The notes below the pieces were generated by a model. The model was not told where the DNA came from, ran no database searches, and saw only the letters and a list, made by a program, of their open reading frames with translations. The position numbers were made by a program, and so were the translations under genes. 44,087 bases of DNA, taken from the IMG/VR virus record IMGVR_UViG_2541047944_000002, positions 1-44,087 of that record, one strand, 5' to 3'. This DNA comes from a virus. Lineage: Duplodnaviria > Heunggongvirae > Uroviricota > Caudoviricetes. Shown piece by piece: positions 2,164-42,691 of this stretch (position 1 is the first letter of the stretch; each line of letters starts with the position of its first letter).

Positions 2164-2352
2164 TCACGAGGACAGAAGTTTCTCGCAATTAAAATTTATC
2201 AGTTTTACTTTCTGCTCTCTGGAAACGCCTGCTTCTTTTTTCCCTGAGAGCATTTTTTCGCATTCTGATTTCGTTAATTTAGATTTTGAATATCTTGTCC
2301 AGTTAGTAGGTGTGCCACCTTCCTTTTCAATAGTGGCGGTAATTTTATACAT
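2164..2352 (-). CDS. Hypothetical protein, Rac YdaC-like (DUF1187)
   Basis: ORF with probable start at internal Met (MYKITATIEKEGG...); recalled similarity to Rac ydaC; synteny with lar. Confidence 0.45.
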   Translation of the reverse strand: MYKITATIEKEGGTPTNWTRYSKSKLTKSECEKMLSGKKEAGVSREQKVKLINFNCEKLLSS

Positions 2353-2539
2353 GAACACCTCCATTATTATTTCCAGTAGTTCGTTTATTCCATCTTGCAA
2401 GTGCTTCTTTTTCACTTCCACTATAGCCGGTTCGGGATTCGCACCCGTTACACTTCGCTCGGTAATATCCTGAAATGGCTTTCACCGTTACTGATGGACA
2501 ACCACAAAATGGACATGGTTTGACTTTTTCATACCGCAT
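2345..2539 (-). CDS. ralR: Restriction alleviation protein Lar/RalR family
   Basis: MRYEKVKPCPFCGCPSVTVKAISGYYRAKCNGCESRTGY...: Cys-rich Lar-family signature as recalled from Rac RalR. Confidence 0.7.
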   Translation of the reverse strand: MRYEKVKPCPFCGCPSVTVKAISGYYRAKCNGCESRTGYSGSEKEALARWNKRTTGNNNGGVHV

Positions 2540-2602
2540 TGTCTTTTCTCTCATAAAATAAAGTTTTGTTATGGCGGCGAGGCTACACCGCCATAGTAAA
2601 TA

Positions 2603-3655
2603 TCAGGAGCCGATATATTCTGGTTTCATATCTGTCAGTGTCGTTTTATACGCCTCATATAATTCTCCCAGATGTGGTCGTGCAGCATTCAGCGTATTTT
2701 CCAGAGCAGTAAATTTTTGTTCTGCTTCCGGATCACCTGATGAAGGCAGGTCATTTATCATCTTCTCAATACGGGCAATAGCATTGAGACGGTGATGACG
2801 CTGAACCACTTTTCCTTTAAGTTCCGTATAGAGAGCGCCAAGTGTATTTTTATGCTCTTCCACTTCCTGCCGAAGTGCTGTTGTTTCTCCGGTGCTTTGT
2901 GCCTGCTCAATACGTTCACGGAAAGCACTGATCCAGTTTTCCCCGACATCCTGCTCAATAATTGTTGTTTCACGTTCCGCACGGCAGGCGGATGTGTTTT
3001 TATGTTCCTGAACCGGATTAATGATTTTTTCCTGTGGTTCGTCCAGTTCGTCCCGGGTGTACACTCCAAGAATCACTTCAGGGCAATAAAGGCGCGCCCA
3101 GCGTTTCAGTGCCAGATAGGCAAGCTGCTGACGAGGATCATCGGCCCATAACGTTGAGTTACGTGTTCTGGCCTGCGCCAGAAGTAACTCCAGTACGCGT
3201 GGTTTGCTCTCTCCGCGTAGTGTTGCCTGGACGCGAACTCCGATCCCGTTTTCATCGACCAGCTTCCAGCCAGGTACACGATATTCTTTCCCTTTGTCGT
3301 TCTTCCTGATTTCAAATTTCCCGATAATTTTTTCCCACGGCCCGAACCAGTCATATTCAATACGCCCGGTTAACGGCCCACGAGTACTGATTACGGCATT
3401 AACCAGTTGCGCTTCATATCCGAGTACACCATTCACAACGAAAGTTTTCTGAGCTACTGCGTAAGGGTTCATTTGCCACTGCATCGCCTGCATGGTGATG
3501 GCCATGCAGTCTGATGGATTTCCCCGGAGGTGTTCCGGTACAGTAGCCATGCCGGAAGCCATTACCTGAGAAAACGTCTGAATTGCAGCCAGAGACTGAG
3601 GGCTGAAAACCGCAACATTAGAGTTAATATTTTCTTGTTGAGTTAATTCGTTCAT
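2603..3655 (-). CDS. recT: RecT/Bet-family single-strand annealing recombinase
   Basis: 350-aa ORF with GGAGG-type RBS, directly downstream of the recE-like exonuclease in Rac-like order. Family call from synteny plus general resemblance, not a verified alignment. Confidence 0.6.
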   Translation of the reverse strand: MNELTQQENINSNVAVFSPQSLAAIQTFSQVMASGMATVPEHLRGNPSDCMAITMQAMQWQMNPYAVAQKTFVVNGVLGYEAQLVNAVISTRGPLTGRIEYDWFGPWEKIIGKFEIRKNDKGKEYRVPGWKLVDENGIGVRVQATLRGESKPRVLELLLAQARTRNSTLWADDPRQQLAYLALKRWARLYCPEVILGVYTRDELDEPQEKIINPVQEHKNTSACRAERETTIIEQDVGENWISAFRERIEQAQSTGETTALRQEVEEHKNTLGALYTELKGKVVQRHHRLNAIARIEKMINDLPSSGDPEAEQKFTALENTLNAARPHLGELYEAYKTTLTDMKPEYIGS

Positions 3656-3666
3656 TGTGTCCTTCC

Positions 3667-6600
3667 TCAGATGCTCAGTGCTTCAAGACGACGAAGATCA
3701 AAGTCGTTTAATTCGTCGGTATAACTTTCGGTAATCGGTGCTGGCCAGTTGTTTGTCTCCAGCGCTTCGTTTATCTGGTGTAGCGTCCGGCGATATTCCT
3801 GTCGACCAAGTTCAAGGAGTTCCTGCGAGGCTTCCACGACTGCCACCCAGTGATAGCCAGCATCTTTGTTGACGAAGATCCAGAAAAATTTGTCCAGGTT
3901 TGCCACATCGCAATACATTGCGGCGCTGAGGTGATAATCACGCTCAATAATTTCACGGTGCAGGCGATCTTTAAGTCGTTCCTGCCGCACATAACCGAGG
4001 CTGACTGACTTCACGTCAGCGCAAATGCTTTCGTATGGCAGCCGGATTTCGATATCAGGACGGACCCTGATTTCCAGCCCGGTTTCTTCATCAAACCCGA
4101 AATAGCTGATTTCAGATTTGCGATCCGGGTGGTTGAGTAGCCTTGCTGCATCGGTATTGTTTTGCAGTGCCGCGTGAATATTTTTTGCCTGTTCATACAT
4201 ATCCGGACTGATAAACGTTTTCCCGGCGTTTTCTTCTTGCTGGCGTTTTTGCCAGTCCTCCAGTGTCACCAGTTCCGGGCGAATTTTCCGTGCGATTTCG
4301 GTTAATTGCTCTTTTGTGCCACTGATGTTGTAAGGCAAAGATTTAGCACGTTCTTTTTTTGCCAGTTCTGGATCTACAGTTTCAATTTGATCCAGAAGCT
4401 GCTCCCGTGCTCCACTGGTTTTCAACAGAGGAGGGAGGCTTGCGTTGTATTCTTTAATACAGGCTTTCATTGCTGATGCTGTGTGTTTTTCCCCCTCAGG
4501 AATACGCCGAAATTCCACCGGAAGCGAACCGTAAAGGATGCCTGTTTCTTCGGCCCCAGCACTTACAGACAGTGGCTGTATAAGAGTGCTGTTGTAGCTT
4601 TCGATCCACTCTTTCATCTGCTCTGGTGTCATCAGTGCTGGCAGACTGGCATTGTGTTTTTTAATGATGGCGATCAGTTCGTTAGAAGTAGTAACCACAT
4701 ATTCAGGAACCGGTACCGGAATGGCATATTCATCAGCGAATTTATCCGTTTCCAGAACATAGCTGTGAATGATCCGCCCACGCAGCAGTGCATCACTTTC
4801 CTCGTTCGGAATAGTTCCGGCAATGTGCCGCCCGTGGTAATACATCAGGCTGATACGGGCATCCTTCAGCATCGTGCTGCTTATTCCGTTGGCGGAGTGA
4901 TAAACCTCGTTCGGGAGGTTTTCATAGCGGCCTGGCTCGAAATATGACGGCCACATGATTTCAGTTGCTACAGGAGCTGACGCTTCGCCAGTTTCATCAC
5001 TGCAATTGCGATGCGGATCGCTGTCAGCATTCTCATTGTGCGGATGTTCAGCGCCTTCCATTTTCTCCGGCTCATTTTCCCGAACTTCAACCTGATTCTC
5101 GTCATCGAATGTTTCCTGATATGTTGCGTCGCCCATCACCGCACCACAGTCAGGGCAGTTATCCCCGCCAGACTGACCGCAGGCATTGCAAACTTTTTCC
5201 ACTTCCTGTTGCGCCACTGGTTCAGGCTGTTTCGTTTCTGGCTCGTTTTGTAACGCATTTGGGCTGTTTTGTTCCGCTTTCTGGTCGTTCTGTTCCGATT
5301 CTTGTTGGTTCTGGTTCACTGAATCGCGGGTTTCAATCCCCTTCACCCATTTCGGATCATTCGGGTCGCTAATCCCCTCAACAAATTCTCCGCGAGAGGC
5401 AGCCAGCAATTTGTCGGCATCGACAGGATTTTTGGGCGGAATGGTTTTCCGGGCTTCATGAAGTTCTGCCCGCAGTTTCTGATATTTCGCATCAACAGAA
5501 TTTACCTGTGACTGAGCATCCAGCGGCTGCGTGTCCTGATGATGTTCAGTTGCATCCGGTTCCACTGTTTCAGCCGTTGCCTGTTCATCTGCCATTGCGC
5601 AAGATGGTTGCGGTTTTTCTTCATCATCCTGTTTTTCTTCTTCTGTTACCCGCTGCGGCATCGGGGCAGAGGAGCGACCGCAGGCAATATCCACGATTTC
5701 CGGATCAGGGTTGGCATGATCGGTTTCAGTCAGTACTTTGTTCAGATATTCAGTGACGTGTGCGGGGATAACCTCGATCCCAATTGGTGCTTCTTTTACG
5801 GACGCAACCACGATGGCGCGGGAATAATCCAGCCCGCCAGGCATGGCGATGAATTTGTCGCGGAAAACAGAAAAGGGCGGTTTATTTTCAGCGATAATTT
5901 CCTCGACACGTTTAGCGTGTGCCGGATGAAGGTTATAAATGTCCACGTCCATTGAACGGGCCAGTACGCCAGTGGCTACATCGCGTGCCAGTGACGTCAG
6001 ATCGTGGACGAAACCTTCGCCGCGATCGGTGAGGTTCCCGCCGCCAGCATTAGCACCGGAAGCCGTGCGAGTGATGCGTGAAACACGATTTCCTTTCATC
6101 CACTCTTTTGTCAGCAGACCGCGATCGGTGTAGTCTGCGTCCAGGTATGCTTCGAAAAAAGCAGTCATCAGCCCCAGACTTGAATTGCCTGGATTAGGGA
6201 AAACTTTGTCAGTATCACGAACCAGTCTGTGAAGATCGCGAATCTCCAGCAGGTCGAGCAGGCTGGTTTTGTGGGAAACAGCCAGGGCAGTAACAGCTGG
6301 TAGTTCTTCAGCCCGTGCAATATGTAATGTCTGGAGTTCGTCGCGTGAAACGTGCGTTACCGGTTTTTCGCTGCCGTGTTGAGCAAGCCAGCGAATGGGC
6401 AGCTCTTGGCCAGAAATCGGGAGTAGCATATTCTCCTCAATCTCAGTCATGTCTTCGCCATTAACATTGGTATTGTCAGTGCTGGCTGGTTTGTCCTGCG
6501 CAGAGGATGAGGGCGCGATAAATACCATTGTGATGCCATCTTCCCCGCCTTTTTCGTAACGGTTGCAGAATTCCGTATCAAATACGCCTTCTGGTGGAAG

Positions 6601-6813
6601 GTCATCAACAACGGGCAAATTGACGCGAACAGGTTTTTTAAAGTCATCTTCATCGTAGCCAGCATCGTCAATCGCAACAGCACCACGGGAGATGGCAATG
6701 GATAATTTTTTCGCTTCAGCCCAGTAGAAACCGCCTTTAATACCGAGACGTTTTCTTACTTTGTCATTTTTTGCTTCGTAATACAGTGGGTAAACTTGTT
6801 TATCGGTGCTCAT
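3667..6813 (-). CDS. recE: Exodeoxyribonuclease VIII (RecE)-like, enlarged 1048-aa form
   Basis: Long ORF upstream of recT-like gene; C-terminal nuclease region and Rac-like context; contains acidic low-complexity stretches and a Cys-rich segment ([16 protein letters not shown]). Confidence 0.65.
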
Positions 6814-6883
6814 TGTTTTTTAACCTCAACTCAGATTAAAATTACTGCGAGTGATGAATAAATGTCCCAGGTTCTTCACTCAG

Positions 6884-6914
6884 GCCTGCACAGTGTGCAG
6901 GCTTTCTTTTTTTC
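6884..6914 (+). terminator. Plus-strand-oriented intrinsic terminator in the racC-recE intergenic region
   Basis: gcctgcaca-g-tgtgcaggc stem followed by tttcttttttt; the reverse complement lacks a U-run. Confidence 0.4.
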
Positions 6915-7188
6915 AGATTTCACCTTTTAATTTCATTGCAATCAGAGTTGCCAGAAATTCGGCTTTTTTTTCTGCTGGCAGATTCTTTCCTATGTGCACC
7001 AGACACATTTTTTTAACACCATCGTTAAGTGTTTTAACGTTGCCTGATGGACCGTCGATATCAACCACAGTGAATGGGGTTTCTTTATTTTCTGTCTTAA
7101 TCACGTAGCCAATACGCTTTCCTTCTAGGCTGACTTCGTGAACAATGTCATCAGTAGTAACAACAGTGGCTTCATAACTGGTAATCAT
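6913..7188 (-). CDS. RacC-like protein
   Basis: ORF beginning MITSYEATVV with AAGGAG RBS; recalled similarity to Rac racC; position upstream of recE. Confidence 0.5.
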   Translation of the reverse strand: MITSYEATVVTTDDIVHEVSLEGKRIGYVIKTENKETPFTVVDIDGPSGNVKTLNDGVKKMCLVHIGKNLPAEKKAEFLATLIAMKLKGEI

Positions 7189-7262
7189 GTTTTTCTCCTT
7201 AATTAAGGTTGAGCGAATCCCTGCCATTGCTGGCATAAATTCAGTTTCGGATAGTCAGTTAA

Positions 7263-7439
7263 TTAAAGTTCGTGTGCCATCTGGTCTTTTTCGGCACAGA
7301 TTTCACTACAATATTTTTTCATTTCCGTCGTTGGTATAACTCCACGCATGAAATGAAGTGGTCTTGTAATGATTTTGCTTTCTTCAATTTCTTTATTGCA
7401 AAGGTGATAAGCACATTTTATTTTCTTAGTCATTACCAT
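7263..7439 (-). CDS. Small zinc-binding protein, Rac YdaE-like (58 aa; below ORF-track cutoff)
   Basis: Found by manual translation: [21 protein letters not shown]...[15 protein letters not shown]; Cys pairs; sits between the racC-like and kilR-like genes as in Rac. Confidence 0.45.
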
Positions 7440-7654
7440 GACTCCGCCTTTACAGGTAAACCATCACGACCGAGGAAGACTTTAATCATGCAGTCAGAAA
7501 TGCATGTTTTTGTAGTCAGGCTACGAATATAAAGTTTTCGCTTTTTAATATTGTTTGCCGAGGCGATATATGTCCGACCTTCATGAAGAACATAATCGCC
7601 AGGGGTCACACACTGACGTGGTATTTCATCAGTTCCGAAGTGATGAGCAATCAT
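7433..7654 (-). CDS. kilR: KilR-like cell-division inhibitor
   Basis: 73-aa ORF from internal Met with GGAG RBS ([29 protein letters not shown]...); recalled as Rac KilR; kil position in the leftward early operon. Confidence 0.55.
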
Positions 7655-8051
7655 AATTATCTCCATTTTTACAAATGAATTTTGTCGATGCGGTGCCTGG
7701 TGCCTCCAGGTGACGTTAACCAGTTAACAATTAACGCCGGATAATCCACCCATAACACTGATGCTTTTAACTGTGCCGCGTGCGCTTAGCCGCATTCACC
7801 GCATCACAAAATTCACTTTAAAAAGGGCGGACATCAGCCGAACTTCAAGAAAAAAACTGATGCCGCCAGGACTACACACAGCAATGTCGTTATTTACAAC
7901 CGGAGGCGCACTCACACCATTTAAATTTAACAGACAAGACCGACTCTTTATGAATACCGGAAATGCGCCTTCGTGTTGTGCCCGGTTTTATTTCACCACC
8001 TCCGGGCTTTGGTGGTATCTTTACTGAAGTTCTCACACAACCAGTAAGGAA

Positions 8052-8990: not shown

Positions 8991-9410
8991 TTACTCCGGT
9001 GGGGGATTATCTTTAAGCCTGCCTCTCAAATATTTTTCTACATACTCATCGATTTCTTTTAGCCGGACTTCAAATAGCTCAATCATTCGTTGTTGTTCTG
9101 AGCCCGGTAGCTGGTTAAACAACTCAAGAAGTTTTCGTTGGGATTCATTTAACCACAATTCAGAAGATTCCTGTTCTCCAAAGAGGAGCTCAGGGGGAGA
9201 TATGCCAAGTGCCTTTCCCAATACGACAGCGTCATGCACTCCAACATTTCTGCTGCCCGCCTCATAGTTACCTATACGCGATTGCGTCCATCCGCAGATT
9301 TCAGCAAGTTTTCCTTGAGATAAACCAAGCTTCTGCCTGCGCTCTTTAAGACGCATTGCAATTTTGTCATTGAGCCTACTAGCGGCAATTTTTTCGTTTT
9401 CTTTTTCCAT
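8991..9410 (-). CDS. Phage repressor, HTH XRE family (cI/RacR-like)
   Basis: HTH motif (LGLSQGKLAEICGWTQSRIGNYE); divergent from a Cro-like gene across an operator-bearing intergenic region. Confidence 0.8.
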   Translation of the reverse strand: MEKENEKIAASRLNDKIAMRLKERRQKLGLSQGKLAEICGWTQSRIGNYEAGSRNVGVHDAVVLGKALGISPPELLFGEQESSELWLNESQRKLLELFNQLPGSEQQRMIELFEVRLKEIDEYVEKYLRGRLKDNPPPE

Positions 9411-9506: not shown

Positions 9507-9749
9507 ATGAACAAAATTTCAACATATCGAAAACAGCTTGGGTTGTCTCAAAGACAACTCGCTGTTCAGTTAGGGTGGATACAAAGCCGACTGGCAAATT
9601 ACGAAGCAAATTTTCGTACCCCAGGACTAGAGGAGTGCAGAAAAATTGTTTCTACCCTTAATCGGCTTGGCGCTCATTGTGGACTTGACGATGTATTCCC
9701 CCCAGACGGTAAGCATAGCGAAAACAGCATAGGAGCGGTTGATTCATGA
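9507..9749 (+). CDS. Cro-like HTH regulator (YdaS-like)
   Basis: HTH motif (LGLSQRQLAVQLGWIQSRLANYE); GGAGG RBS; divergent from repressor. Confidence 0.7.
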   Translation: MNKISTYRKQLGLSQRQLAVQLGWIQSRLANYEANFRTPGLEECRKIVSTLNRLGAHCGLDDVFPPDGKHSENSIGAVDS

Positions 9750-10168
9750 AAATCAGGCATGAGCACATCGAATCAGTGCTGTTAGCCCTGGCAGCCGAAA
9801 AAGGGCAGGCGTGGGTCGCTAACGCAATTACTGAAGAATATCTCCGCCAGGGGGGAGGTGAATTGTCTCTGACACCAGGCAAGGACTGGAACAATCAGCA
9901 GAATATCTATCACCGTTGGTTGAAAGGTGAAACGAAAGCGCAAAGGGAAAAAATTCAGAAACTGATCCCTGCGGTTCTGGCAATTCTTCCGCGCGAGCTG
10001 CGTCACCGACTCTGCATCTTCGATACCCTGGAACGCCGTGCATTACTGGCGGCGCAGGAAGCGTTGAGTACGGCAATTGATGCGCATGATGATGCAGTCC
10101 AGGCCGTTTACCGGAAAGCACATTTCAGCGGTGGTGGGTCGCCCGGCGATTCTGTCGTAGTGCATTGA
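9746..10168 (+). CDS. YdaT-like protein (cII-position regulator / putative toxin family)
   Basis: 140-aa ORF translationally coupled to the Cro-like gene (ATGA overlap); recalled similarity to Rac YdaT. Confidence 0.55.
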   Translation: MKIRHEHIESVLLALAAEKGQAWVANAITEEYLRQGGGELSLTPGKDWNNQQNIYHRWLKGETKAQREKIQKLIPAVLAILPRELRHRLCIFDTLERRALLAAQEALSTAIDAHDDAVQAVYRKAHFSGGGSPGDSVVVH

Positions 10169-10245: not shown

Positions 10246-11034
10246 ATGGCTTCAAACTGGATAAAGCTCGAGGTTATTACGCCGGATAAGCCGGAAATAT
10301 TCAGGCTTGCTGAGATTCTGAATATTGATCCAGATGCCGCATTAGGGAAGGTTATTCGCTTCTGGGCATGGGCGGATCAACAAATGATAGACGGTAATGC
10401 AGATTGTAACGCTCGCGGCGTTACAAAAAGTGCAATAGACCGCATCACTTTTATGGCTGGTTTTGCTGATGCGTTAATTCAGGTTGGATGGCTGGTCGAA
10501 AATGACGGTGGGCTTTCTCTACCTAACTTTGAACGTCATAACGGAAAAAGCTCTAAAAAACGGGCGGTTACAAACGAGCGAGTTACAAAAATACGCGAAC
10601 TGAAACGAAAAGGTAACGCTGGCAGCGTTACACAAACGGATCAAAAAGCGTTACCAGAGGAAGAGGAAGAGGAAGATATAAATACTGATCTCCCCCTAAA
10701 TCCCCCTCGCCAAAAACGAGCGTCTAAAAAATTCGAGCCGGAGGCTATCGAGCTGCCTGACTGGTTGCCGGAAACACTCTGGCATGAGTGGGTTAAGTTC
10801 AGGCAGGCATTGCGAAAACCGATTCGAACGGAGCAGGGCGCTAACGGGGCGATACGGGAGCTGGAAAAATTCCGTCAGCAGGGTTTTACACCTGAGCAGG
10901 TGATTCGACACAGCATCGCCAATGAATACCAGGGCCTGTTCGCGCCGAAAGGTGTTCGGCCTGAGACGTTGCTCCGACAGGTTAACACTGTCTCGTTGCC
11001 GGACAGTGCGATCCCGCCAGGCTTCAGGGGGTAA
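10246..11034 (+). CDS. Replication initiator, lambda O-like / DUF1376 (YdaU-like)
   Basis: Position upstream of the DnaC-like loader; contains internal iteron repeats (see repeat feature). Confidence 0.6.
   Translation: MASNWIKLEVITPDKPEIFRLAEILNIDPDAALGKVIRFWAWADQQMIDGNADCNARGVTKSAIDRITFMAGFADALIQVGWLVENDGGLSLPNFERHNGKSSKKRAVTNERVTKIRELKRKGNAGSVTQTDQKALPEEEEEEDINTDLPLNPPRQKRASKKFEPEAIELPDWLPETLWHEWVKFRQALRKPIRTEQGANGAIRELEKFRQQGFTPEQVIRHSIANEYQGLFAPKGVRPETLLRQVNTVSLPDSAIPPGFRG
10405..10634. repeat. Putative replication origin iterons (GTAACGC-N5-GCGTTAC dyads and GTTACAAA repeats)
   Basis: tgtaacgctcgcggcgttaca (10405..10425), gttacaaa x2 (10567..10591), gtaacgctggcagcgttaca (10613..10632), plus one upstream copy at 10211..10231; followed by a GAA-rich then AT-rich stretch. 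Confidence 0.55.
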
Positions 11035-11787: not shown

Positions 11788-11809
11788 TTTTTACCGGGAG
11801 GAAATTTTA

Positions 11810-34188: not shown

Positions 34189-34838
34189 TGGACTTTTTAT
34201 CTGTTTTACTGCAGCAGCGAACCCGCTCAATAGGAATCATTATTCCTGATGTGGTTATTACCGAAAAGCACACTGACGCCCTGGAAATTACGGAACATCC
34301 GGTTGAACAGCCCACGAATGCTGGTGCCAGTGGTGAGGGCGCTGGTTACATATCAGAACACGCATTCAGGCGCCCTTCTGAGGTTGTGATGGAAACCGGT
34401 TTTTCCGGAGGCGGATCGCTGCTTGATTTTGCCAGTAACCTGACTGCTACCAGTTTACTGGGGCTGAGCCCGAAAGAACTGTATCAGGAACTGCTTAACC
34501 TGCAGCGGAATCGTATTCCTTTCGATGTGACAACCGGCAAGCGTATTTACAACAATATGTTGATAAAAACGCTGGAGGTCACGACCGATAAGAGTAGTGA
34601 AAATGTGCTTCTGGCGACACTTACCCTCAGGGAAGTAATTATTACCTCCACGCAGTCAGTCAGGGTTGCCCCGAAAAACAATATGACCGAGGGAGTCGGA
34701 ACGTCTGCTGTGCAGAATACAGGCACCAAAACAACGGTGCCGCCGAATAATTCCATTCTGAAATCGCTGCCACAGATGGCGCAAGAAGGTATCTCCACTG
34801 TTGATGGGTATTTGAGCAATTTATTTCTGGGAAGGTGA
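34185..34838 (+). CDS. Tail/baseplate assembly protein
   Basis: Gene order. Confidence 0.45.
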   Translation: MMDFLSVLLQQRTRSIGIIIPDVVITEKHTDALEITEHPVEQPTNAGASGEGAGYISEHAFRRPSEVVMETGFSGGGSLLDFASNLTATSLLGLSPKELYQELLNLQRNRIPFDVTTGKRIYNNMLIKTLEVTTDKSSENVLLATLTLREVIITSTQSVRVAPKNNMTEGVGTSAVQNTGTKTTVPPNNSILKSLPQMAQEGISTVDGYLSNLFLGR

Positions 34839-34841
34839 TTC

Positions 34842-35144
34842 ATGGAAGCCGTAGAAATCCCACTGGTTGCTGACAATCAGACTTTTGCCACCACAATTAA
34901 CGGTTCGGTTTATCACCTGTCTGTCATCTGGCGAGGCGAGTACTGGGTTCTGGATCTTGCTGACAGCAATGGCTCCGCCATTATATCAGGTATACCGATG
35001 ATTACGGGGGCTGACCTGCTGGCACAGTATCGATATATGGATCTGGGTTTTTCTCTGGTGGTGCTCTGCGACGTGGCAGGGCAGGAGAATCCGACGCAAT
35101 TCGATCTTGGAACGCTCTCACACCTCTATGTTTTCACGGAGTAA
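34842..35144 (+). CDS. Tail protein
   Basis: Gene order. Confidence 0.4.
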   Translation: MEAVEIPLVADNQTFATTINGSVYHLSVIWRGEYWVLDLADSNGSAIISGIPMITGADLLAQYRYMDLGFSLVVLCDVAGQENPTQFDLGTLSHLYVFTE

Positions 35145-35146
35145 CA

Positions 35147-36181
35147 ATGTCGAAAAACTGGATGCGTCACTTTGAATTATTGCTTGTTGATGATAAGGGC
35201 GACGGGATAAAAATTTCTGAGCTTAAAGTCACTTTCAATATTCAGAAAATGCCTGCGACCATATTCAATGGATTCGTTGGGAATTTTAAGGTTTATAACC
35301 TGTCCCCTACCACTCAGAACCGGATTATGCAGAAGGAGTTTTCGCGTATACAGGTTATTGCCGGATACAAGGGGCAACCGGATGCAGCAGGTAATTATCC
35401 TGATGAAAACGTTGGTATGATATTCAATGGAGATATCCGTTTTACTGTCACTGGTAAAGATAATGCCACAGACAGTTGGATCATGTTGCAGTGTATTGAC
35501 AGCTGGGAAGGCCATCTGAATGCAAGTGTGAAAACCACAGTGGCAGCTGGCTGGAAGTACAGCGATCTTTTCAGTCTGGGTATGAAATCATTCGAACCAT
35601 ATGGCATCGAATCCGGCGCAGTTCCTGACATGCCGGAAACGGTATTTCCCCGAGGGCGCGTTGTTTATCAAAACACATCAAGGTTGATGAATCATATCGC
35701 AGGGCAGTGTAAAGCTAACTGGTGGTATGAAAATAATCTGGTAAATATTGTTCCTGAAGATAAATATATTGGTGTTGCTACGGTGTTGAATGCTAACACC
35801 GGGCTTATCGGTATGCCACAGCAGACGATGGGAGCTGGCGTAAATGTCAGATGCCTGATTAATCCAAATATTAAGCTCGGTGGGCTTATTCGTCTGGATC
35901 AGGCATCTGTATACCGTGCCTCTTTGAGTAATGACCAGGTAGCGAAATCGCCAGCACGACTGGATGAGTCTGAAAGCGACGGTAATCTCTACGTTAACGG
36001 TCTGCCAGGCATGTCACAGCCTGCCAGCATTAATACTGACGGTGATTACATTGTGGGCAGCATTGATTATACTGGCGACACCCGAGGGCAGGCGTGGTAT
36101 ATGGACCTGCTTTGCCTGGCTAAAGGTGGCAAAGAACTATTGGCAAAAGGCACTTTGGACAAAGTCGGAGATGTAGAGTGA
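35147..36181 (+). CDS. Baseplate hub-like protein (Mu gpP-like position)
   Basis: Gene order. Confidence 0.45.
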   Translation: MSKNWMRHFELLLVDDKGDGIKISELKVTFNIQKMPATIFNGFVGNFKVYNLSPTTQNRIMQKEFSRIQVIAGYKGQPDAAGNYPDENVGMIFNGDIRFTVTGKDNATDSWIMLQCIDSWEGHLNASVKTTVAAGWKYSDLFSLGMKSFEPYGIESGAVPDMPETVFPRGRVVYQNTSRLMNHIAGQCKANWWYENNLVNIVPEDKYIGVATVLNANTGLIGMPQQTMGAGVNVRCLINPNIKLGGLIRLDQASVYRASLSNDQVAKSPARLDESESDGNLYVNGLPGMSQPASINTDGDYIVGSIDYTGDTRGQAWYMDLLCLAKGGKELLAKGTLDKVGDVE

Positions 36182-36513
36182 AAAAAGTATTTTTTTGTTT
36201 ATTCTTGGCCCTGCCGTTAACAGTTTCGGCGGCAACGCAGTGCGGACCATTCCGCTTTGATGCTGGTAATGATGGCCTCATGCACATCAATGGTCAAAAG
36301 CCAGAAACACAAAAAATGACCTTTTTGAAACAAAAAGACGATTTCGATAATGTCATGATGCAATGGATGTTACCTGATCCTAATACTGGACGTTGGTTAG
36401 GTATGGACTACATCAAACGAAACAAAAAAGCGATCCTCAACGTTGAAGTTATCCGCAAAAATATGGACGAGCCTCGGGAGTTCTGGACGTATGATTGCCG
36501 GAAGGTGAAGTGA
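36178..36513 (+). CDS. Secreted hypothetical protein inside tail cluster
   Basis: GTG start overlapping upstream stop (GTGA); signal peptide MKKVFFCLFLALPLTVSA-ATQC; two Cys; no structural role evident. Confidence 0.5.
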   Translation: MKKVFFCLFLALPLTVSAATQCGPFRFDAGNDGLMHINGQKPETQKMTFLKQKDDFDNVMMQWMLPDPNTGRWLGMDYIKRNKKAILNVEVIRKNMDEPREFWTYDCRKVK

Positions 36514-36585
36514 ATTACATTGGCGTCCAGCTTCTGCAGAACAGCATGGATGCGCCGAAAATCATCGGTTCCTTTCCATGCAAAA

Positions 36586-36620
36586 AGATTGTTGATTAAT
36601 CACCCGTAATTATAATGTGA
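36586..36620 (+). promoter_or_regulatory. Sigma70-type promoter TTGTTG-16-TATAAT for the 36653 gene
   Basis: gattgttgattaatcacccgtaattataat: near-consensus -10 with 16-bp spacing, about 30 nt upstream of the ATG. Confidence 0.45.
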
Positions 36621-36652
36621 TACTTCTACTTTCACGATAAGGAATTTGTCGC

Positions 36653-36892
36653 ATGTTCGGATTTGATAAATTAATAACTCCAAAAATCATCAACGTTCTG
36701 TATGGCATCACAATGTTACTTCTGGTTGTTGCCGCCATTATAACGTTTGTTAATGGGAAGGCTGCTGGCGCTTTAGTGCTTTTGTTATGTGCTGTATTTT
36801 GCCGAATATTCTTTGAGTGCATCATGGTTTCATTTAAAAACAATGAGTATCTTCGCCGAATAGCTGAAGCGTTAGAAGCAAACAAGCAGTAA
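36653..36892 (+). CDS. Small two-TM membrane protein inside tail cluster
   Basis: Two hydrophobic helices (ITMLLLVVAAIITFV; ALVLLLCAVFCRIFFECIMV); own promoter and terminator. Confidence 0.55.
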   Translation: MFGFDKLITPKIINVLYGITMLLLVVAAIITFVNGKAAGALVLLLCAVFCRIFFECIMVSFKNNEYLRRIAEALEANKQ

Positions 36893-36910
36893 TGAAACTT
36901 CAATAATGAA

Positions 36911-36932
36911 CCCGCCACCCGGCGGGTTTTTT
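36911..36932 (+). terminator. Intrinsic terminator after the 36653 gene
   Basis: cccgcc-accc-ggcggg followed by tttttt. Confidence 0.6.
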
Positions 36933-36951
36933 ACTTTCTGGAGACATATGA

Positions 36952-37704
36952 ATGCCCGTTTCTTTAAGCGCTCAACTTGGTAGCAAAGAACAGGCCGATG
37001 TAAGACTTGCTGGCTCTGTCATGTCGGCGCTGCGTGTTTCTATGCCCGGCATCGTCCAGTCATTTGATCCGGACACGGTAACAGTGGTTGTTCAACCTGC
37101 GATTAAAGGCTATGAGCCGGACTCAAATGGAATCAACCAGTCGACGACATTACCCCTGCTGGTGGATGTGCCAGTGGTATTTCCGCGCGGCGGAGGCTGT
37201 ACGTTGACTTTTCCGGTAAAAGCCGGTGATGAATGTTTGGTGATTTTTGCCGATCGTTGTATTGATTTCTGGTGGCAGAGCGGCGGGATACAGGAGCCTG
37301 TCGATGACAGAATGCATGATTTATCGGATGCGTTTTGTATTGTCGGTCCCCAGTCGCAGGCAAGGAAGATTAGCGGTATTAATACCAGTGCCACACAGTT
37401 GCGTAGTGATGACGGCAGCACCTATTTTGAGCTTAATCCTGATACCAGGAAAATTAAAATTGTCGCTCCGGGGGGGCTTGATGTGGTTGCCCCCCTGGCT
37501 GATTTTTCTGAGAAAGTAACCATTCATGGCCTGTTAACCTGGATGGGGGGCATGGTGGGGTCTGTTGTTTCTGGTGTGGCTTCAAAAATCACTGGTGCTG
37601 TTGAGTTTTTGGGTAGCGTGAATGCTAACGGCAAGCCAATCGATGATACGCACACTCATGGCGGTGTTCAGTGCGGTGGAAGCAATACCGATGGGGTAAA
37701 CTGA
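36952..37704 (+). CDS. Baseplate spike/assembly protein (P2 gpV / Mu gp45-like)
   Basis: Position and size in the Mu-like baseplate block. Confidence 0.55.
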   Translation: MPVSLSAQLGSKEQADVRLAGSVMSALRVSMPGIVQSFDPDTVTVVVQPAIKGYEPDSNGINQSTTLPLLVDVPVVFPRGGGCTLTFPVKAGDECLVIFADRCIDFWWQSGGIQEPVDDRMHDLSDAFCIVGPQSQARKISGINTSATQLRSDDGSTYFELNPDTRKIKIVAPGGLDVVAPLADFSEKVTIHGLLTWMGGMVGSVVSGVASKITGAVEFLGSVNANGKPIDDTHTHGGVQCGGSNTDGVN

Positions 37705-38057
37705 TGCGATACAGACGTGAAGACGCCGATGGCGATTACACCTTTGGCAGCGGTGATGACACCTGGCTGATTAACTCACCGGAGGCCGTGGCGCAGGCGG
37801 TAAAAACGCGATTCGAATTGTGGTATGGGCAATGGTTTCTCGACACCACCGAGGGGACTCCGTGGATCCAGTCCGTACTCGGTAAGCAGAAGCCGGAAAC
37901 CTACAACCTGGCGATCCGTAAGCGCATCCTCGAAACGCGGGGCGTTAAATCAATCCTCTCTTTCAATACGACGGTGGATACCACGACCCGACGTGTCATG
38001 TTTTCCGCTGAAATCGACACTCTCTATGGAATAACGACTGTTACATCGGAGGCGTAA
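37704..38057 (+). CDS. Baseplate protein (P2 gpW / Mu gp46-like)
   Basis: ATGA-coupled small ORF before the J-like gene. Confidence 0.5.
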   Translation: MRYRREDADGDYTFGSGDDTWLINSPEAVAQAVKTRFELWYGQWFLDTTEGTPWIQSVLGKQKPETYNLAIRKRILETRGVKSILSFNTTVDTTTRRVMFSAEIDTLYGITTVTSEA

Positions 38058-39256
38058 TGGCTCTGAACCTTGATTCTCTCGGTTTATCTGCAAAGGTAAC
38101 CGCGGAGGGGATCAGTGCGCCTGATTATCAGACGATACTCAGCACCCTGATTAGCTATTTTCAGCAGATTTATGGTAGTGATGCCTACCTCGAACCGGAC
38201 AGTAAAGACGGTCAGATGGTGGCTCTGATGGCGCTGGCGATTCATGATGCCAATAATATGGCGATAACTGTCTACAACTGTTTTTCACCAGCAACCGGCT
38301 ATGGGGCCGCACTGACCAGTAACGTGAAAATAAATGGTATTTCACGTAAAGGCGCGACGAATTCTACGGTTGATTTGCTTCTTACAGGAACTGCCGGAAC
38401 AACCATCATTAATGGCAGCGTGAAAGACAGTAATAATGTGATATGGCGTTTGCCTGCTTCAGTGGTGGTCGGCGTGGATGGTACAGTGATGGTGACCGCA
38501 ACATGTTCCGTCAGTGGTGCAGTGGCGGCGCTGGCTGGAACTATCACTGAAATTAATACGCCAACCCGTGGCTGGGTTTCGGTAACCAATCCTGCTGTAG
38601 CTACTGTAGGCACTCCAGCAGAAACTGATGCGGAGTTACGTATCCGCCAGTCGCAAAGTGTTGCGTTGCCATCAATAACCCCATTTGAAGCACTGGATGG
38701 TGCTGTTTCTAATGTTACCGGTGTAACCCGCCACAAACTCTATGAAAACGATACTGGTTCGGAGGACGGTAACGGGTTACCGCCACACTCTGTTGCTGTA
38801 ATTGTGGATGGCGGTGATGTGACGGATATTGCTCAGGCTATCAGAGGGAATAAAGGCCAGGGGACAGCCACTCACGGTACAACATCCGTTATGGTTCCGG
38901 ATAAATACGGCAATCCCCATGTAATCAAGTTCTCGCGTTCCAGTGATGTACCTGTTTATGCCCGGATCAAATTAAAAGTTTTTACGGGTTATACCTCACA
39001 GATAGGGCAGCAGATCCAGCAGGCTATTTCCGACTATATCAATAGTCTGACGATTGGTGATTCGGTCCTTTTAAGTCGCATTTACTCACCGGCGAATCTT
39101 GGCGTGGTGAGTGGCGGGAATGCACGCTATTACGATATTCAGGAACTGACGATTGGGAAATCCCCGGGGGCTTTGTCGTCATCAAACATTGATATCAGAT
39201 ACAACGAATCTGCGTCCTGTACCCCGGAAAATATCGTTATAACGGTGGAGTCATGA
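38057..39256 (+). CDS. Baseplate J-like protein (Mu gp47-like)
   Basis: 399-aa ORF in canonical order. Confidence 0.6.
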   Translation: MALNLDSLGLSAKVTAEGISAPDYQTILSTLISYFQQIYGSDAYLEPDSKDGQMVALMALAIHDANNMAITVYNCFSPATGYGAALTSNVKINGISRKGATNSTVDLLLTGTAGTTIINGSVKDSNNVIWRLPASVVVGVDGTVMVTATCSVSGAVAALAGTITEINTPTRGWVSVTNPAVATVGTPAETDAELRIRQSQSVALPSITPFEALDGAVSNVTGVTRHKLYENDTGSEDGNGLPPHSVAVIVDGGDVTDIAQAIRGNKGQGTATHGTTSVMVPDKYGNPHVIKFSRSSDVPVYARIKLKVFTGYTSQIGQQIQQAISDYINSLTIGDSVLLSRIYSPANLGVVSGGNARYYDIQELTIGKSPGALSSSNIDIRYNESASCTPENIVITVES

Positions 39257-39933
39257 GCAAATACACCGAACTAATCACGAACTACCACGCCACCAAACCT
39301 AAATTTCTTGCGCATGTTGATCTGATGACCCAGCCACTTATTGATGTTGCGGCTGCCACCAGAGGGCTGATTACTGCATTTGATATTGACTCTGCGGTTG
39401 GTGTGCAACTTGACATTCTGGGATTGTGGATCGGACGTAGCCGTGTTGTCAGCCAGCCTATCTCAGGTGTCTATTTCAGCTGGGATACCGACGGGCTTGG
39501 ATATGATCAGGGGGTATGGCAGGGGCCATATGATCCTGATTCTGGATACATGTATCTCAGCGATGAAACTTATCGTGTCATTCTTAAAGCGAAGATTGCG
39601 ATTAATAACTGGGACGGACGGAATGATTCGCTTCCGGCAATTCTTGACGCGGCAACAGCAGGATCCGGGCTGCGAATGCAGATTGTCGATAACCAGGACA
39701 TGACGATATCGGTCTGGGTCTTTCCTGATACTGATATTTCAGATGTATCGCGTGAGTTAATTGCTGCAATTAAACAGGGATATCTCACAGTAAAAGCCGC
39801 CGGTGTGTGGGCAGGTGGCATTGAAACACCTTCGGTGGAAACCCCATCGGAAGGTTCAAAATTTTTTGGTTTTGATATGGATAACGAATTCATCAGTGGT
39901 TTTGATGTAGGGGCATGGGGAGTATTACTCTGA
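39253..39933 (+). CDS. Tail protein (P2 gpI / Mu gp48-like)
   Basis: Gene order directly upstream of the fibre gene. Confidence 0.5.
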
Positions 39934-40604
39934 TGGCAAAAAATGACTTTAAAGCATTCGCAACGGGTAAAAATGCCAATGTTATGTCGCAGGAGGAATG
40001 GGAAGCGTTGCCTGCGCTTTTATCCGGATTTACAGCAGGGAAAGCATCCAGTGCGCAAGTCAATAAGGTTATTCGGCAGGCCAGCTTTATTGCTGCAGCT
40101 CTGGCCCAGTTTGTAAGTGACAAAACGCAACGGGATGTGCTTGATAATGGTGATCTGCCCGGTTTTGTTGAATTGCTGGGATCGGGGTTTGCTGTTGAAT
40201 ACCTGAGCCGCAAAAATCCGTTTGGCGATATCAAATCGGACGGCACAGTGAAAACGGCTCTCGAAAACCTTGGTTTGGGAGAAGCGGCAAAACGGAATGT
40301 GGGAACTGGGGAAAATCAGATACCTGATATGTCATCATATGCATCAGGTTCAGGCTGGCGAAAAATGCCAGATGGTTCAATTGAACAGTGGGGACGAATT
40401 AGTTTTCCTAGTGAACACGGGCCTGTATCCGCCAATGTTTCATTCCCGATTCCATTTACACAGACACCGGGCATTGTAATTGTGTGCGATGGTGGTTTCG
40501 GGGGCGGGAATATGTGGGGGGCGACTAACTGGAGCACTACCGGCTTCATAGCTCACTGCAATTATGGTCTTGAAGGTGGTGCGTTTTTCGCTAAGGGCTG
40601 GTAA
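39933..40604 (+). CDS. Tail fibre protein: constant N-terminus plus variable C-terminus (current orientation)
   Basis: Contains crossover site at 40258..40283; Gly-rich C-terminus; followed by a tail fibre assembly gene. Confidence 0.65.
40258..40283. other. Left 26-bp invertase crossover site (gix/pix-like) inside the fibre gene
   Basis: ctctcgaaaaccttggtttgggagaa; 20 of 26 match the reverse complement of the right site, 14 contiguous identical. Confidence 0.55.
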
Positions 40605-41047
40605 TGATGAAATATCTGTACGTAAACAACCTGGCATATCCTTACGAACTTCAGTCTCTTTATGTTGAAAAAGGTGAGTGGCCTGAAGAAAAAGGTGTTG
40701 ATATAGACGAAGTAATTTTCAGGGAATATTTCTATGATACACCACCAGAAGGAAAATACAGATGTGTCGGAGAAGATGGACTGCCTGCATGGGTAGATAT
40801 TCCTCCACCAACACGTGAAGAACAAATTGCATCAGCCGAAACTAAAAAGCAGCAATTGATTAATCAGGCCAACGAATACATCAACAGTAAACAATGGCCA
40901 GGTAAAGCATCAATTGGTCGTCTGAAAGGTGAGGAACTGGCGCAATATAATTTGTGGCTGGATTATCTGGACGCACTGGAAATGGTCGATACTTCCAGTG
41001 CGCCAGATATTGAATGGCCTACGCCTCCGGCAGTTCAGGCCAGATGA
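40604..41047 (+). CDS. Tail fibre assembly protein (Tfa / Mu U-like)
   Basis: 147-aa ORF after fibre gene; conserved C-terminal motif shared with the convergent minus-strand paralogue (DYLDALEMVDTSSAPDIEWP vs DYIDAVTATDTSTAPDVIWP). Confidence 0.65.
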   Translation: MMKYLYVNNLAYPYELQSLYVEKGEWPEEKGVDIDEVIFREYFYDTPPEGKYRCVGEDGLPAWVDIPPPTREEQIASAETKKQQLINQANEYINSKQWPGKASIGRLKGEELAQYNLWLDYLDALEMVDTSSAPDIEWPTPPAVQAR

Positions 41048-41612
41048 CATCCGGCGCGGTGCTCGTATCTGTTGCCGTCACCGCGTCAATGTAATCAAGC
41101 ACGGCGTTAAGCCGGGTGGTTTCTGCCTGAGTCAGTTTCCGTCCGGCCTGTAATTTCAGCTGAATCAGACTGATGGAAGCCATTGCAGCATCAATCAGTG
41201 ACTGGCGCTGTGCTTCTGCCGCTTCTACTGCGGCACCGTGTTGTGCCTCAGAATCTGTCACCCATTTCTCACCATCCCATTTATCATATGGCGTTAACGG
41301 TGAAAGCGTGACATAACCGTTTTTGATGGCACCGATATAATCCACTGTAACAGCAGCACCATTTTCAATTGAGTAAACAGTCTCATTGCGATGGTCTTCT
41401 TCATGGCTCCATCCCTTACCTGTAAATACTGCCACTCTTCCCGGAATGTTTTCGCCCGGGTCAATACCAGTGGAACAGGCGGGCATACTTACGCCAGTAT
41501 TAATATATTCATCAGACCAGCCCGTATACTCAGATGTTTCAGCATCATAATAAAAACAACGCATATCGCCCGGCACTGTAGCCAGCCCATTTTCATCAAA
41601 AACAGGTTTCAT
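41019..41612 (-). CDS. Alternative tail fibre assembly protein (Tfa-prime)
   Basis: Convergent paralogue of the Tfa gene within the invertible segment. Confidence 0.65.
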   Translation of the reverse strand: MKPVFDENGLATVPGDMRCFYYDAETSEYTGWSDEYINTGVSMPACSTGIDPGENIPGRVAVFTGKGWSHEEDHRNETVYSIENGAAVTVDYIGAIKNGYVTLSPLTPYDKWDGEKWVTDSEAQHGAAVEAAEAQRQSLIDAAMASISLIQLKLQAGRKLTQAETTRLNAVLDYIDAVTATDTSTAPDVIWPELPEA

Positions 41613-42109
41613 TATTTAGCCCTCACCAGAAAGTTAAATGCAATATTTCGCGGTCTGACAGCAACAAAATTCACACCATCACCCACAGAGTTACTGGTGA
41701 AATTAAATCGTGAAAATCCTGGCTGATTTCCGGCGATACCATCATGAAAGTTAATTGCGTGGCCCGCACCATCGCCTATATTCCCGGCAAACTGAGAAAA
41801 GTTTGTAGCTGCCTGCCAGCTTAATAATTCGCGACCACCGTCTGCACCTCGCCCGTCATCCCAGATACGAATGAAATCACCGCGGGCTTCAGGTAATACC
41901 AGCGAAGGAAACACTTTCGCCAGCACAGGATAATCAGTGGCAGAGAATTTCGCGCCGTTGAACTTCAAAAACACCATACTGGACCAACTGTCGATGACAG
42001 AATTTGGCATTGCAGCGGACGGCCAGAAGAACGGAACGCCAATAGCTGGAGCACCTTCTCCCAAACCAACGTTTAAGAAAATGCAGAGGTAACAGCTAAC
42101 TGGCATCAT
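41612..42109 (-). CDS. Alternative tail fibre variable C-terminal segment (promoterless in this orientation)
   Basis: Reads through the right crossover site in frame (…FLNVGLGEG…, compare …LENLGLGEA… in the expressed fibre); Gly-rich like the expressed C-terminus. Confidence 0.6.
   Translation of the reverse strand: MMPVSCYLCIFLNVGLGEGAPAIGVPFFWPSAAMPNSVIDSWSSMVFLKFNGAKFSATDYPVLAKVFPSLVLPEARGDFIRIWDDGRGADGGRELLSWQAATNFSQFAGNIGDGAGHAINFHDGIAGNQPGFSRFNFTSNSVGDGVNFVAVRPRNIAFNFLVRAK
42056..42081. other. Right 26-bp invertase crossover site (gix/pix-like)
   Basis: ttctcccaaaccaacgtttaagaaaa, imperfect dyad, resembles recalled hix/gix consensus; 55 bp upstream of the invertase gene. Confidence 0.6.
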
Positions 42110-42136
42110 CCCCGGTTTTTATTCAGGGGGATAATC

Positions 42137-42691
42137 ATGCTTATTGGCTATGTACGCGTGTCAACAAATGACCAGAACACCGATTTGCAACGTAATGCAC
42201 TGAACTGCGCGGGATGTGAGCGGATTTTTGAGGATAAAATCAGTGGCACTAAGTCCGACAGACCGGGGCTGAAAAAACTGCTCAGGACATTATCGGCAGG
42301 TGACACTCTGGTTGTCTGGAAGCTGGATCGGCTGGGGCGTAGTATGCGACATCTGGTCATTCTGGTTGAGGAGTTGCGCGAACGAGGCATCAACTTTCGT
42401 AGTCTGACTGATTCAATTGATACCAGCACACCAATGGGACGCTTTTTTTTCCATGTGATGGGTGCCCTGGCTGAAATGGAACGTGAACTGATTGTTGAAC
42501 GAACAAAAGCAGGACTGGAAGCTGCTCGCGCACAGGGACGAATTGGTGGACGACGTCCCAAACTTACACCAGAACAATGGGCACAGGCCGGACGACTAAT
42601 TGCATCAGGAGCTCCTCGCCAGAAGGTGGCGATTATCTATGATGTTGGTGTGTCAACTTTGTATAAGAGGTTTCCGGTCGGAGATAAATGA
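42137..42691 (+). CDS. pin: Serine DNA invertase, Pin/Gin/Hin/Cin family
   Basis: MLIGYVRVSTNDQNTDLQ... with catalytic Ser in the VRVS motif; C-terminal HTH; adjacent to invertible segment. Confidence 0.9.
   Translation: MLIGYVRVSTNDQNTDLQRNALNCAGCERIFEDKISGTKSDRPGLKKLLRTLSAGDTLVVWKLDRLGRSMRHLVILVEELRERGINFRSLTDSIDTSTPMGRFFFHVMGALAEMERELIVERTKAGLEAARAQGRIGGRRPKLTPEQWAQAGRLIASGAPRQKVAIIYDVGVSTLYKRFPVGDK

Follow-up and report, generated by a model that had tools for sequence, protein, structure and literature searches.

Temperate phages that combine a lambda-like gene layout with a contractile tail are already in the literature: Salmonella phage SEN34 (genus Brunovirus) has a lambda-like genome, Myoviridae morphology and a tail seen to be contractile by electron microscopy (PMC5261728), and the SfV kind of chimera, a lambdoid phage with a Mu-type tail, is real and long known (PMC3636060). 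Here we analyse the 44,087-nucleotide (nt) stretch of the virus record IMGVR_UViG_2541047944_000002 (the window, at its full length), which open reading frame (ORF) listing, composition, and similarity searches identify as a segment of the E. coli chromosome with one complete prophage of 42,444 nt (≈42.4 kb, positions ≈577–43020). This prophage is very probably a single, apparently intact temperate phage of lambdoid layout, put together from at least six separately inherited modules, with a virion module of the SEN34 type. A first-pass annotation of the same DNA had described a Rac-like early region joined to a Mu-like head/tail module; what we find is a real but ordinary mosaic lambdoid prophage, whose virion module was mislabelled as Mu-like.

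Module origins were assigned by protein and nucleotide comparison with seven reference phages. Measured one way, the nucleotide similarity of the prophage reaches 39% with vB_EcoM-611R5 (611R5), 26.6% with SEN34, and 18.3% with Rac-SA53, against 3.9% with SfV, 1.4% with lambda, 1.1% with Mu, and 0.3% with P2. SEN34 and 611R5 have, like the window, a lambdoid layout and the same portal-to-baseplate module; the early region, however, is Rac-type in the window, lambda O/P-type in SEN34 and DNA polymerase/helicase-type in 611R5, the large terminase subunit TerL of the window is only 36% identical to that of either relative, the integrase and attachment (att) site differ from both, and SEN34 has no invertible fibre cassette. 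Rac-SA53 differs from the window in its integrase and att site (ttcA, as opposed to sdsR), in repressor/cro, initiator, loader, accessory and lysis genes, and in the whole virion module. SfV, like SfI and e14, joins a lambdoid early region to a contractile tail, as the window does, and has an HK97-type head; its sheath, hub, spike, and wedge match those of Mu at 27–41% identity, whereas those of the window do not. Mu and the window have in common a Gin-type invertase, an invertible fibre/Tfa segment and similar crossover sites, but the window has no transposase, and all of its major virion proteins fall into families different from those of Mu.

A SEN34-type virion module

The virion module is ≈98% identical to 611R5 at the nucleotide level over 22968–33414 and 37149–40284, the two having diverged at ≈33.4–37.1 kb, and 74–82% identical to SEN34. 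At the protein level, SEN34 has a match for 27 of the 29 structural proteins, in the same order and with 47–96% amino acid identity; the head and neck proteins are 93–100% identical to those of 611R5 and 69–96% to those of SEN34. The late genes run in the order terS, TerL, portal, MuF-domain protein, protease/scaffold, cement, capsid, neck, sheath, tube, chaperone, tape measure, baseplate, spike, gp25-like protein, baseplate J, wedge, fibre, Tfa, Tfa′, fibre′, invertase. The structural proteins thus match a third lineage, SEN34/611R5, and not the lambdoid siphoviruses that had been named as the alternative to Mu. In the practice of the International Committee on Taxonomy of Viruses, a genus is bounded at ≥70% whole-genome nucleotide similarity; the prophage has the Brunovirus virion module, while its one-way similarity, 26.6% to SEN34 and 39% to 611R5, lies far below the genus level.

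Searches of Pfam and the Protein Data Bank (PDB) link the module further to Pam3, E217 (Pbunavirus), and XM1: through the cement protein (E217 gp24/Pam3 gp6/XM1 gp53), the capsid (PDB 8hdt), the sheath (PDB 7kh1 gp6, E 9e-41; Pam3 sheath, E 7e-24), the plug (Pam3 gp18), the hub (E217 gp41), and the wedge. The relationship is distant (E 1e-5 to 1e-41), and these phages have other hosts and are not lambdoid prophages. The phage of PDB 7kh1 we take to be XM1, and the phage names given to PDB 7kh1 and 8env are provisional. Baseplate proteins were named from Pfam, PHROGs, PDB, and the PGAP names in PEC422.

Comparison with Mu and P2

When all proteins of the window were compared with Mu by tblastn, matches were limited to the invertase, a fragment of a spanin, and baseplate J (27% identity to Mu gp47 over 41–46%, E about 2e-4). 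In the reverse direction, 22 of 24 Mu late proteins had no tblastn match in the window, and only gp47 and Gin were found. SfV, as a positive control, gave nine Mu matches (gp38, sheath L, N, hub P, gp45, gp46, gp47, gp48, and U), so that the test is able to detect a Mu-type tail. Nucleotide similarity to Mu lies entirely within the invertase. Furthermore, no protein of the window matched the Mu early region (transposase A/B) by tblastn, a tyrosine integrase and att sites being present instead, and tblastn against P2 gave no structural-protein match.

The Pfam families differ in the same way. The portal is Phage_portal_3 in the window and Portal_Mu (PF06074) in Mu, the protease/scaffold DUF2213 versus Mu-like_Pro (PF10123), the major capsid protein PF09950 versus Mu-like_gpT (PF10124), the sheath DUF3383 versus Phage_sheath_1, the tube KPP10_Orf10 versus Tail_tube (PF10618), the hub E217_GP41 versus GpP/Gp44 domains, and the wedge DUF2612 versus Phage_Mu_Gp48; the spike has an N-domain different from the Phage_Mu_Gp45 of Mu. 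Only Phage_Mu_F (PF04233, E 9.5e-18) and Baseplate_J (PF04865, E 6e-16) are common to both virions, and since these two domains are widespread outside Mu-like phages they do not discriminate. A Mu or P2 ancestry of the tail is ruled out by the two-way tblastn with its SfV control, together with the Pfam comparison.

The description of the head/tail module as Mu-like therefore does not hold, although parts of it have a basis. The structural genes do follow Mu gene for gene by function, but not by homology; this order is usual for simple contractile-tail phages and is no sign of Mu ancestry. The “F-like” head protein does carry a Phage_Mu_F domain, which is not specific to Mu, and the baseplate set called V/W/J/I-like is so by function only, none of these proteins being found by tblastn against P2. 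As judged from sequence, the Mu likeness comes down to three things: the gene order of contractile tails, the MuF and baseplate-J domains, and the invertase.

The invertible fibre cassette

A part of the Mu-like description that is confirmed is the fibre–Tfa inversion cassette with its Gin-like invertase. The invertase is 79% identical to Mu Gin at the amino acid level, and the cassette has the features of the Gin/Hin/Cin/Pin systems, namely a serine recombinase with a C-terminal helix-turn-helix (HTH) and inverted sites that leave the gene in frame both ways. The inverted crossover sites (40265–40284 and 42055–42074) are 20 nt long and 95% matched, and have the core AAACC-NN-GGTTT in common with Mu gix. 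In the present orientation the fibre is 229 residues long; inversion in silico gives an in-frame fibre of 270 residues with a different tip, and each tip has its own Tfa chaperone gene. In 611R5 the stretch bounded by the crossover sites runs the other way round between colinear flanks, which is direct evidence that the segment inverts.

Prophage boundaries and early region

The two att cores form a 26-nt direct repeat with two mismatches (ACAGGAATCGTATTCGGTCTTTTTTT at 577–602 and ACAGGAATCGTGTTCGGTCTCTTTTT at 42995–43020). Positions 300–576 joined to 42995–43300 give a sequence that is contiguous and 100% identical in E. coli Nissle 1917, ATCC 11775, and others, and 5191 of the 5426 complete E. 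coli genomes have this reconstructed empty site without interruption. The single att pair and the empty-site match set the limits of the element at 577–43020 and place its insertion, between yebY and pphA, at the 3′ end of the sdsR/ryeB small-RNA gene. The span of 2164–42691 first assigned to the chimera covers most of the prophage, but omits int/xis (734–2063) and both att sites. The ryeB 3′ end is already published as the attachment site of Salmonella phage PhiW104 (Balbontin 2008, summarised in PMC7380047), and ryeA/ryeB expression is altered in PhiW104 lysogens (PMC7380047). Here, the insertion swaps out the sequence that adjoins the 5′ part of ryeA.

The element has one integrase and one att pair, and the expected genes from int through the invertase are all uninterrupted ORFs with the lengths found in SEN34 or 611R5. 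They stand in lambdoid order (int–xis/recombination/immunity/replication/nin/Q/lysis/packaging/head/tail) with divergent early operons. The integrase is lambda-Int-like (39% identity to lambda Int, E 9e-76) and, having no tblastn match in Rac-SA53, is not like Rac IntR; insertion at sdsR likewise departs from the IntR and ttcA combination of Rac-type elements. A tRNA scan of the window found no tRNA genes.

The chimeric build with a Rac-like early region is borne out by both protein and nucleotide comparison, as is the Rac order of the early genes. Rac-SA53 aligns colinearly with the window in seven blocks between 2114 and 17892, at 85–94% nucleotide identity, and the order ydaC(DUF1187)–ralR–recT–recE–racC–ydaE–kilR, ydaT, ydaW, DUF977, hok/sok, DUF1367, YbcO is that of Rac-SA53, with 63–97% amino acid identity for the products (YdaC/DUF1187, RalR, RecT, RecE, RacC, YdaE, KilR, YdaT, YdaW, DUF977, Mok/Hok, DUF1367, and YbcO). 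The element thus has the recET, ralR/RalA, kilR, ydaT, and ydaW genes that mark the Rac type, in Rac order, and Rfam names the RalA RNA. Nevertheless, going by the same comparisons, the early region is itself patchy and Rac-type only in part: by tblastn, the repressor and the Cro-like gene have no match in Rac-SA53, which itself has immunity genes of the dicA/dicC type, and neither do the accessory genes of 13010–15600.

Lysis genes and module boundaries

Two further lambda-type assignments had been made, of which the lysis genes stand and the antiterminator does not. By Pfam the holin falls in the lambda S family (PF05106, Phage_holin_3_1), the endolysin is 88% identical to lambda R, and Rz and Rz1 (Pfam LysC) are 84% and 72% identical to those of SfV, the cassette as a whole being 89% identical to SfV at the nucleotide level over 19327–20643. 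The protein in the Q position, on the other hand, belongs to DUF1133/PHROG 753, is 42% identical to the Q of Rac-SA53, matches Pfam Phage_antitermQ only below the cut-off, and has no tblastn match to lambda Q. At least five unrelated Q types are known among lambdoid phages (PMC8022706), and by sequence the protein is a Q analogue rather than a lambda-type Q. Directly after its gene lies a promoter-like site (18033–18062), and the insert that follows at the start of the late operon (18033–18866) resembles Gifsy-1 isrK and P1 immI; its ORF6N antirepressor matches the PHROG 2379 anti-repressor (E 7e-94).

The seam of the chimera had been placed between the spanin and terminase genes. Breakpoints do lie there, but there are several seams and not one: homology to relatives breaks at 20643, 20882–20905, 20979, and 22968–23029, which makes at least four breakpoints. 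SfV homology stops at the first of these. The stretch 20450–20979 is common to many E. coli prophages, which diverge beyond it; Klebsiella prophages have only the terminase pair in common with the window (83% nucleotide identity, from 20882–20905 to ≈23053); 611R5/SEN34 homology begins at 22968; and other E. coli prophages enter the same portal gene at 23004–23029, behind other terminases. The terminase pair, shared with Klebsiella and with a TerL only 36% identical to those of SEN34 and 611R5, is thus a module of its own.

The modules also occur apart from one another. The same late module stands behind three different early regions (in SEN34, 611R5, and the window), and Rac-type early regions stand before other late modules (in Rac-SA53 and the vB_EcoS-666R9 group). 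Among the 5426 complete E. coli genomes, 21 and 24 carry at least 80% of the one and the other half, at least four have both halves contiguous at the same locus, and the two junctions are present in 38 and 47. The combination of modules seen in the window is established in nature.

The prophage would therewith consist of a lambda-Int-type integration module targeting the sdsR/ryeB 3′ end; a Rac-type early-left recombination and kil block; an immunity/replication core, unlike that of Rac-SA53, set amid Rac-type ydaT, ydaW, and nin-like genes and ending in the putative DUF1133 Q-like antiterminator; a lambda/SfV-type lysis cassette; a PBSX-type terminase pair in common with Klebsiella prophages; and a SEN34-type (Brunovirus-like) module of head, contractile tail, and simple baseplate, closed by the Gin/Pin-controlled fibre cassette. 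Judging by what is known of such families, the Q-like protein would let RNA polymerase starting at the promoter behind its gene read through the isrK/C4–antirepressor insert, and late transcription would go on into the lysis genes, across the conserved stem-loop and as far as the genes for packaging and the virion. DNA packaging is probably headful and the virions are probably SEN34-like myoviruses, in which Pin-mediated inversion would switch between two fibre tips and so between two host ranges.

Table 1. Features of the window, with positions counted from its first nucleotide
Feature	Position	Strand	Annotation
yebY, left flank	1–342
SraC/RyeA, antisense to and convergent with SdsR/RyeB	462–606	-	Rfam SraC, 180 bits
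sdsR/ryeB	503–602	+	Rfam SdsR, 118 bits
attL core	577–602		last 26 nt of sdsR/ryeB
Integrase	734–1810	-	Pfam Phage_integrase and lambda arm-binding domain
Excisionase	1776–2063	-
Rac-type early-left block: ydaC (DUF1187), ralR, recT, recE, racC, ydaE, kilR	2164–7666	-	86–92% nt identity to Rac-SA53
RalA antitoxin RNA	2168–2346	+	Rfam, 220 bits
HTH repressor	8991–9410	-	Pfam HTH_3; 36% identity to a SEN34 protein
Cro-like HTH	9507–9749	+	Pfam HTH_3
YdaT	9746–10168	+	93% identity to Rac-SA53
Replication initiator	10246–11034	+	PHROG 2509 replication initiation protein; no Rac-SA53 match
DnaC/IstB-like loader	11041–11787	+	Pfam IstB_IS21; no Rac-SA53 match
YdaW/DUF1627	11759–12571	+	91–92% identity to Rac-SA53
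DUF977	12572–13009	+	91–92% identity to Rac-SA53
Accessory genes	13010–16524	+
Mom-like protein	13998–14489	+	PHROG 1384, E 4e-42; Pfam Mom below cut-off
hok/sok	15711–16036	+	Rfam sok, 113 bits
nin-like genes DUF1367 and YbcO, then Q-like gene	16596–18036	+	Pfam DUF1367, YbcO, DUF1133
Q-like antiterminator	17482–18036	+	DUF1133; PHROG 753 “anti-termination protein Q-like,” E 4e-80
isrK/C4-type RNA element and ORF6N antirepressor, between Q-like and lysis genes	18056–18866	+	Rfam c4-a1b1, isrK, C4
Lysis cassette: holin, endolysin, overlapping Rz/Rz1 (LysC-type) spanins	19338–20716	+
Stem-loop	20880–20923	+	arms 20880–20899 and 20904–20923; 20-bp stem
terS	20940–21689	+
TerL, PBSX/Terminase_3 type	21655–23058	+	Pfam Terminase_3, PHROG 370
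Head/neck: portal (Phage_portal_3/DUF1073), MuF-domain protein, DUF2213 protease/scaffold, cement protein, major capsid (PF09950), DUF4054, Neck1, adaptor, neck terminator	23058–29948	+	Pfam, PHROGs
Tail: DUF3383 sheath, KPP10_Orf10-type tube, assembly chaperone, tape measure	29952–34188	+	Pfam
Baseplate: Dit-like protein, Pam3-gp18-type plug, E217-gp41-type hub, small ORFs including DUF4282 insert, spike, gp25-like sheath initiator, baseplate J, DUF2612 wedge	34185–39933	+
DUF4282 small membrane-protein gene	36653–36892		absent from SEN34 and 611R5
Tail-fibre gene and invertible 1.8-kb segment	39915–42109		two alternative fibre C-termini, two Tfa chaperones
Serine invertase, Gin/Pin family	42137–42691	+	Pfam Resolvase and HTH_7
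attR core	42995–43020	+	displaced original sdsR 3′ end
pphA, right flank	43152–43811

Alternative readings

That a Mu-like head/tail module was joined at a single seam to a Rac-like lambdoid early region would account for the functional order of the late genes, the Phage_Mu_F protein, the baseplate J at 27% identity to Mu gp47, the invertase at 79% identity to Gin with its gix-like sites, and the Mom-like protein encoded in the early region, which has no tblastn match to Mu mom. We nonetheless hold it to be extremely unlikely. Of the Mu late proteins, 22 of 24 are without a tblastn match where SfV gives nine, Pfam puts portal, protease, capsid, sheath, tube, hub, spike, and wedge in families other than those of Mu, similarity to Mu at the nucleotide level is 1.1% and confined to the invertase, and the module is 98% identical to 611R5 and 74–82% to SEN34; moreover, many non-Mu prophages, as well as e14 and P1, are known to have Gin/Pin cassettes. 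By sequence and protein family the Mu derivation is already refuted, and gene order plus a Gin-type invertase are insufficient grounds for naming a tail module “Mu-like.” Equally unlikely is a false chimera made of two adjacent or nested elements, or of an assembly artefact: G+C does rise from ≈41–50% in the early region to 49–56% in the head genes, and several sharp homology breakpoints crowd around 20.6–23.0 kb, but against this stand the one integrase and single att pair with flanks that rejoin exactly to the empty site, a complete and non-redundant lambdoid gene set in the order of SEN34, which is a real virion genome (PMC5261728), and the presence of the same junctions in 38–47 independent complete genomes.

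A mosaic prophage built as we describe, yet defective or cryptic like K-12 Rac and producing no particles, is unlikely but has to be taken seriously. Rac-type prophages are often cryptic, relatives are frameshifted (two early genes in PEC422, a split hub gene in 611R5), and Pfam recognises no self-cleavage domain in the repressor; in the window, on the other hand, the genes from int to the invertase are all uninterrupted and of the expected lengths, both att cores are present, and the antirepressor could drive induction. Several points do weigh against an intact SEN34-type lambdoid phage. Inducibility and particle form are predicted from the genes, packaging mode from the terminase family only, and Q function only from its position and the name of its family; the reference for the immunity genes was Rac-SA53, not RacR/YdaS of K-12. 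Contractile tails, that of Mu included, are all related at the level of fold, so that “not Mu-like” here means no closer to Mu than to other myoviruses. Furthermore, 611R5 is a predicted prophage and not an isolated virion (bioRxiv 10.1101/2022.06.29.498070), with which its record (ON470588.1) is consistent: the hub gene is split into two ORFs (31266–32330), and the end of the record (40486–42739) consists of host genes, for example that for tRNA adenosine deaminase.

Even taken as an intact mosaic phage with a SEN34-type virion, the chimera as first stated is of little consequence: descriptions of mosaicism in lambdoid phages go back decades, contractile tails on lambdoid genomes are already published (SfV/SfI, SEN34), and dozens of E. 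coli genomes already carry this exact prophage. What may be new is confined to the stem-loop family at the lysis/packaging boundary.

A stem-loop family at the lysis/packaging boundary

The 13-bp perfect hairpin noted at the seam is real, but part of a larger structure: its 20-bp stem has 15 perfect pairs, one G·U, and four more pairs, folds as RNA at −33.8 kcal/mol (z = −7.3), and has its end 17 nt ahead of the start codon of terS. Hairpins with other inner-stem sequences occur in prophages that have the same terS, and 611R5 has the hairpin before an unrelated terS. The pattern CATTACAG-N17-25-CGATAATGWC matched at least 120 viral contigs, and of the 81 matches examined among those listed, 77 fold alike: a 5-bp outer stem (CAUUA/UAAUG), a 2 × 2 internal loop, and an inner stem of 9–11 bp, for which there are ≈35 different sequences. 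The hairpin usually stands ≈17 nt ahead of the first packaging gene. An endolysin or Rz homologue lies at most 3 kb upstream in 41/49 hairpin loci, and TerL lies 0.6–1.8 kb downstream in 26/44, with five different TerL types among them.

Because the search pattern left the inner stem unconstrained, covariation there is an unbiased test. It was measured on 26 distinct, ungapped hairpin sequences of equal length; a MAFFT alignment of 15 terS-upstream sequences was structure-inconsistent and was not used for pair counts. In the set of 26, 99.2% of cells are paired, compared with 90.2% in shuffles (0 of 500 as high) and 34–48% with slid partners, and five pairs show double changes. The 99.2% applies to the sense strand of the late operon, and the other strand reaches 87.9%; G·U pairs make the structure strand-specific, which indicates an RNA structure. 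Changes on opposite arms bring the usual 2 × 2 internal loop to perfect pairing, CA>UC on the 5′ arm in the window and GA>UG on the 3′ arm in locus L017; either templated quasi-palindrome correction or selection for pairing would be expected to leave such a pattern.

Several candidate identities were rejected. An intrinsic terminator is contradicted by the missing T-run on either strand after the hairpin, and the terminator scan does not list one. A DNA palindrome or protein operator is disfavoured, given the covarying inner stem and the strand-specific G·U pairs, and so is a pac-like site of one terminase type, since TerL genes of at least five types, and in addition an HNH gene, are found behind the hairpin. 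No Rfam covariance model matched at the gathering threshold, a permissive search giving only chance-level miRNA matches (E ≥ 0.3), and a literature search for a hairpin upstream of terS returned nothing specific.

With the lysis cassette on one side and one of at least five unrelated types of terminase on the other, the hairpin travels with the module boundary and with neither neighbour. Tentatively, and at slightly less than an even chance in our estimate, it is a copy of an undescribed functional RNA element of the late transcripts of enterobacterial temperate phages, which would act both as a processing or stability signal and as a landing pad for module exchange. The signal might, for example, be an RNase III-type site that uncouples lysis mRNA from morphogenesis mRNA (compare the inter-genic hairpins of T7), and the conserved sequence could at the same time serve as a recombination boundary at which modules are exchanged. 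Should it prove to be a functional RNA, phage late operons would gain a new cis-element, and there would be a concrete case of the conserved “linker” sequences that have long been supposed to mediate module swapping.

Other observations

The early region has two type I toxin–antitoxin loci, RalR/RalA (2168–2554) and hok/sok with mok (15711–16036). PADLOC, run on the unannotated early ORFs, found no defence families. Among the accessory genes, a 39-nt sequence (CATTCGCATCAAAGGAGAG...ATG) occurs in three copies (13035–13073, 13965–14003, and 14459–14497), each containing a ribosome-binding site and start codon and each standing before one of successive small genes; these repeats may be linkers for the swapping of gene cassettes. 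Over ≈8 kb, the Rac-type early region is 95% identical at the nucleotide level to GenBank PP818812.1, “Actinobacillus phage vB_Apl-pPE4,” and the host attribution of that record looks doubtful. Finally, within the baseplate cluster there is a stretch of low G+C (≈43%) at 36514–36951; it carries the DUF4282 gene, which looks like an inserted accessory gene.

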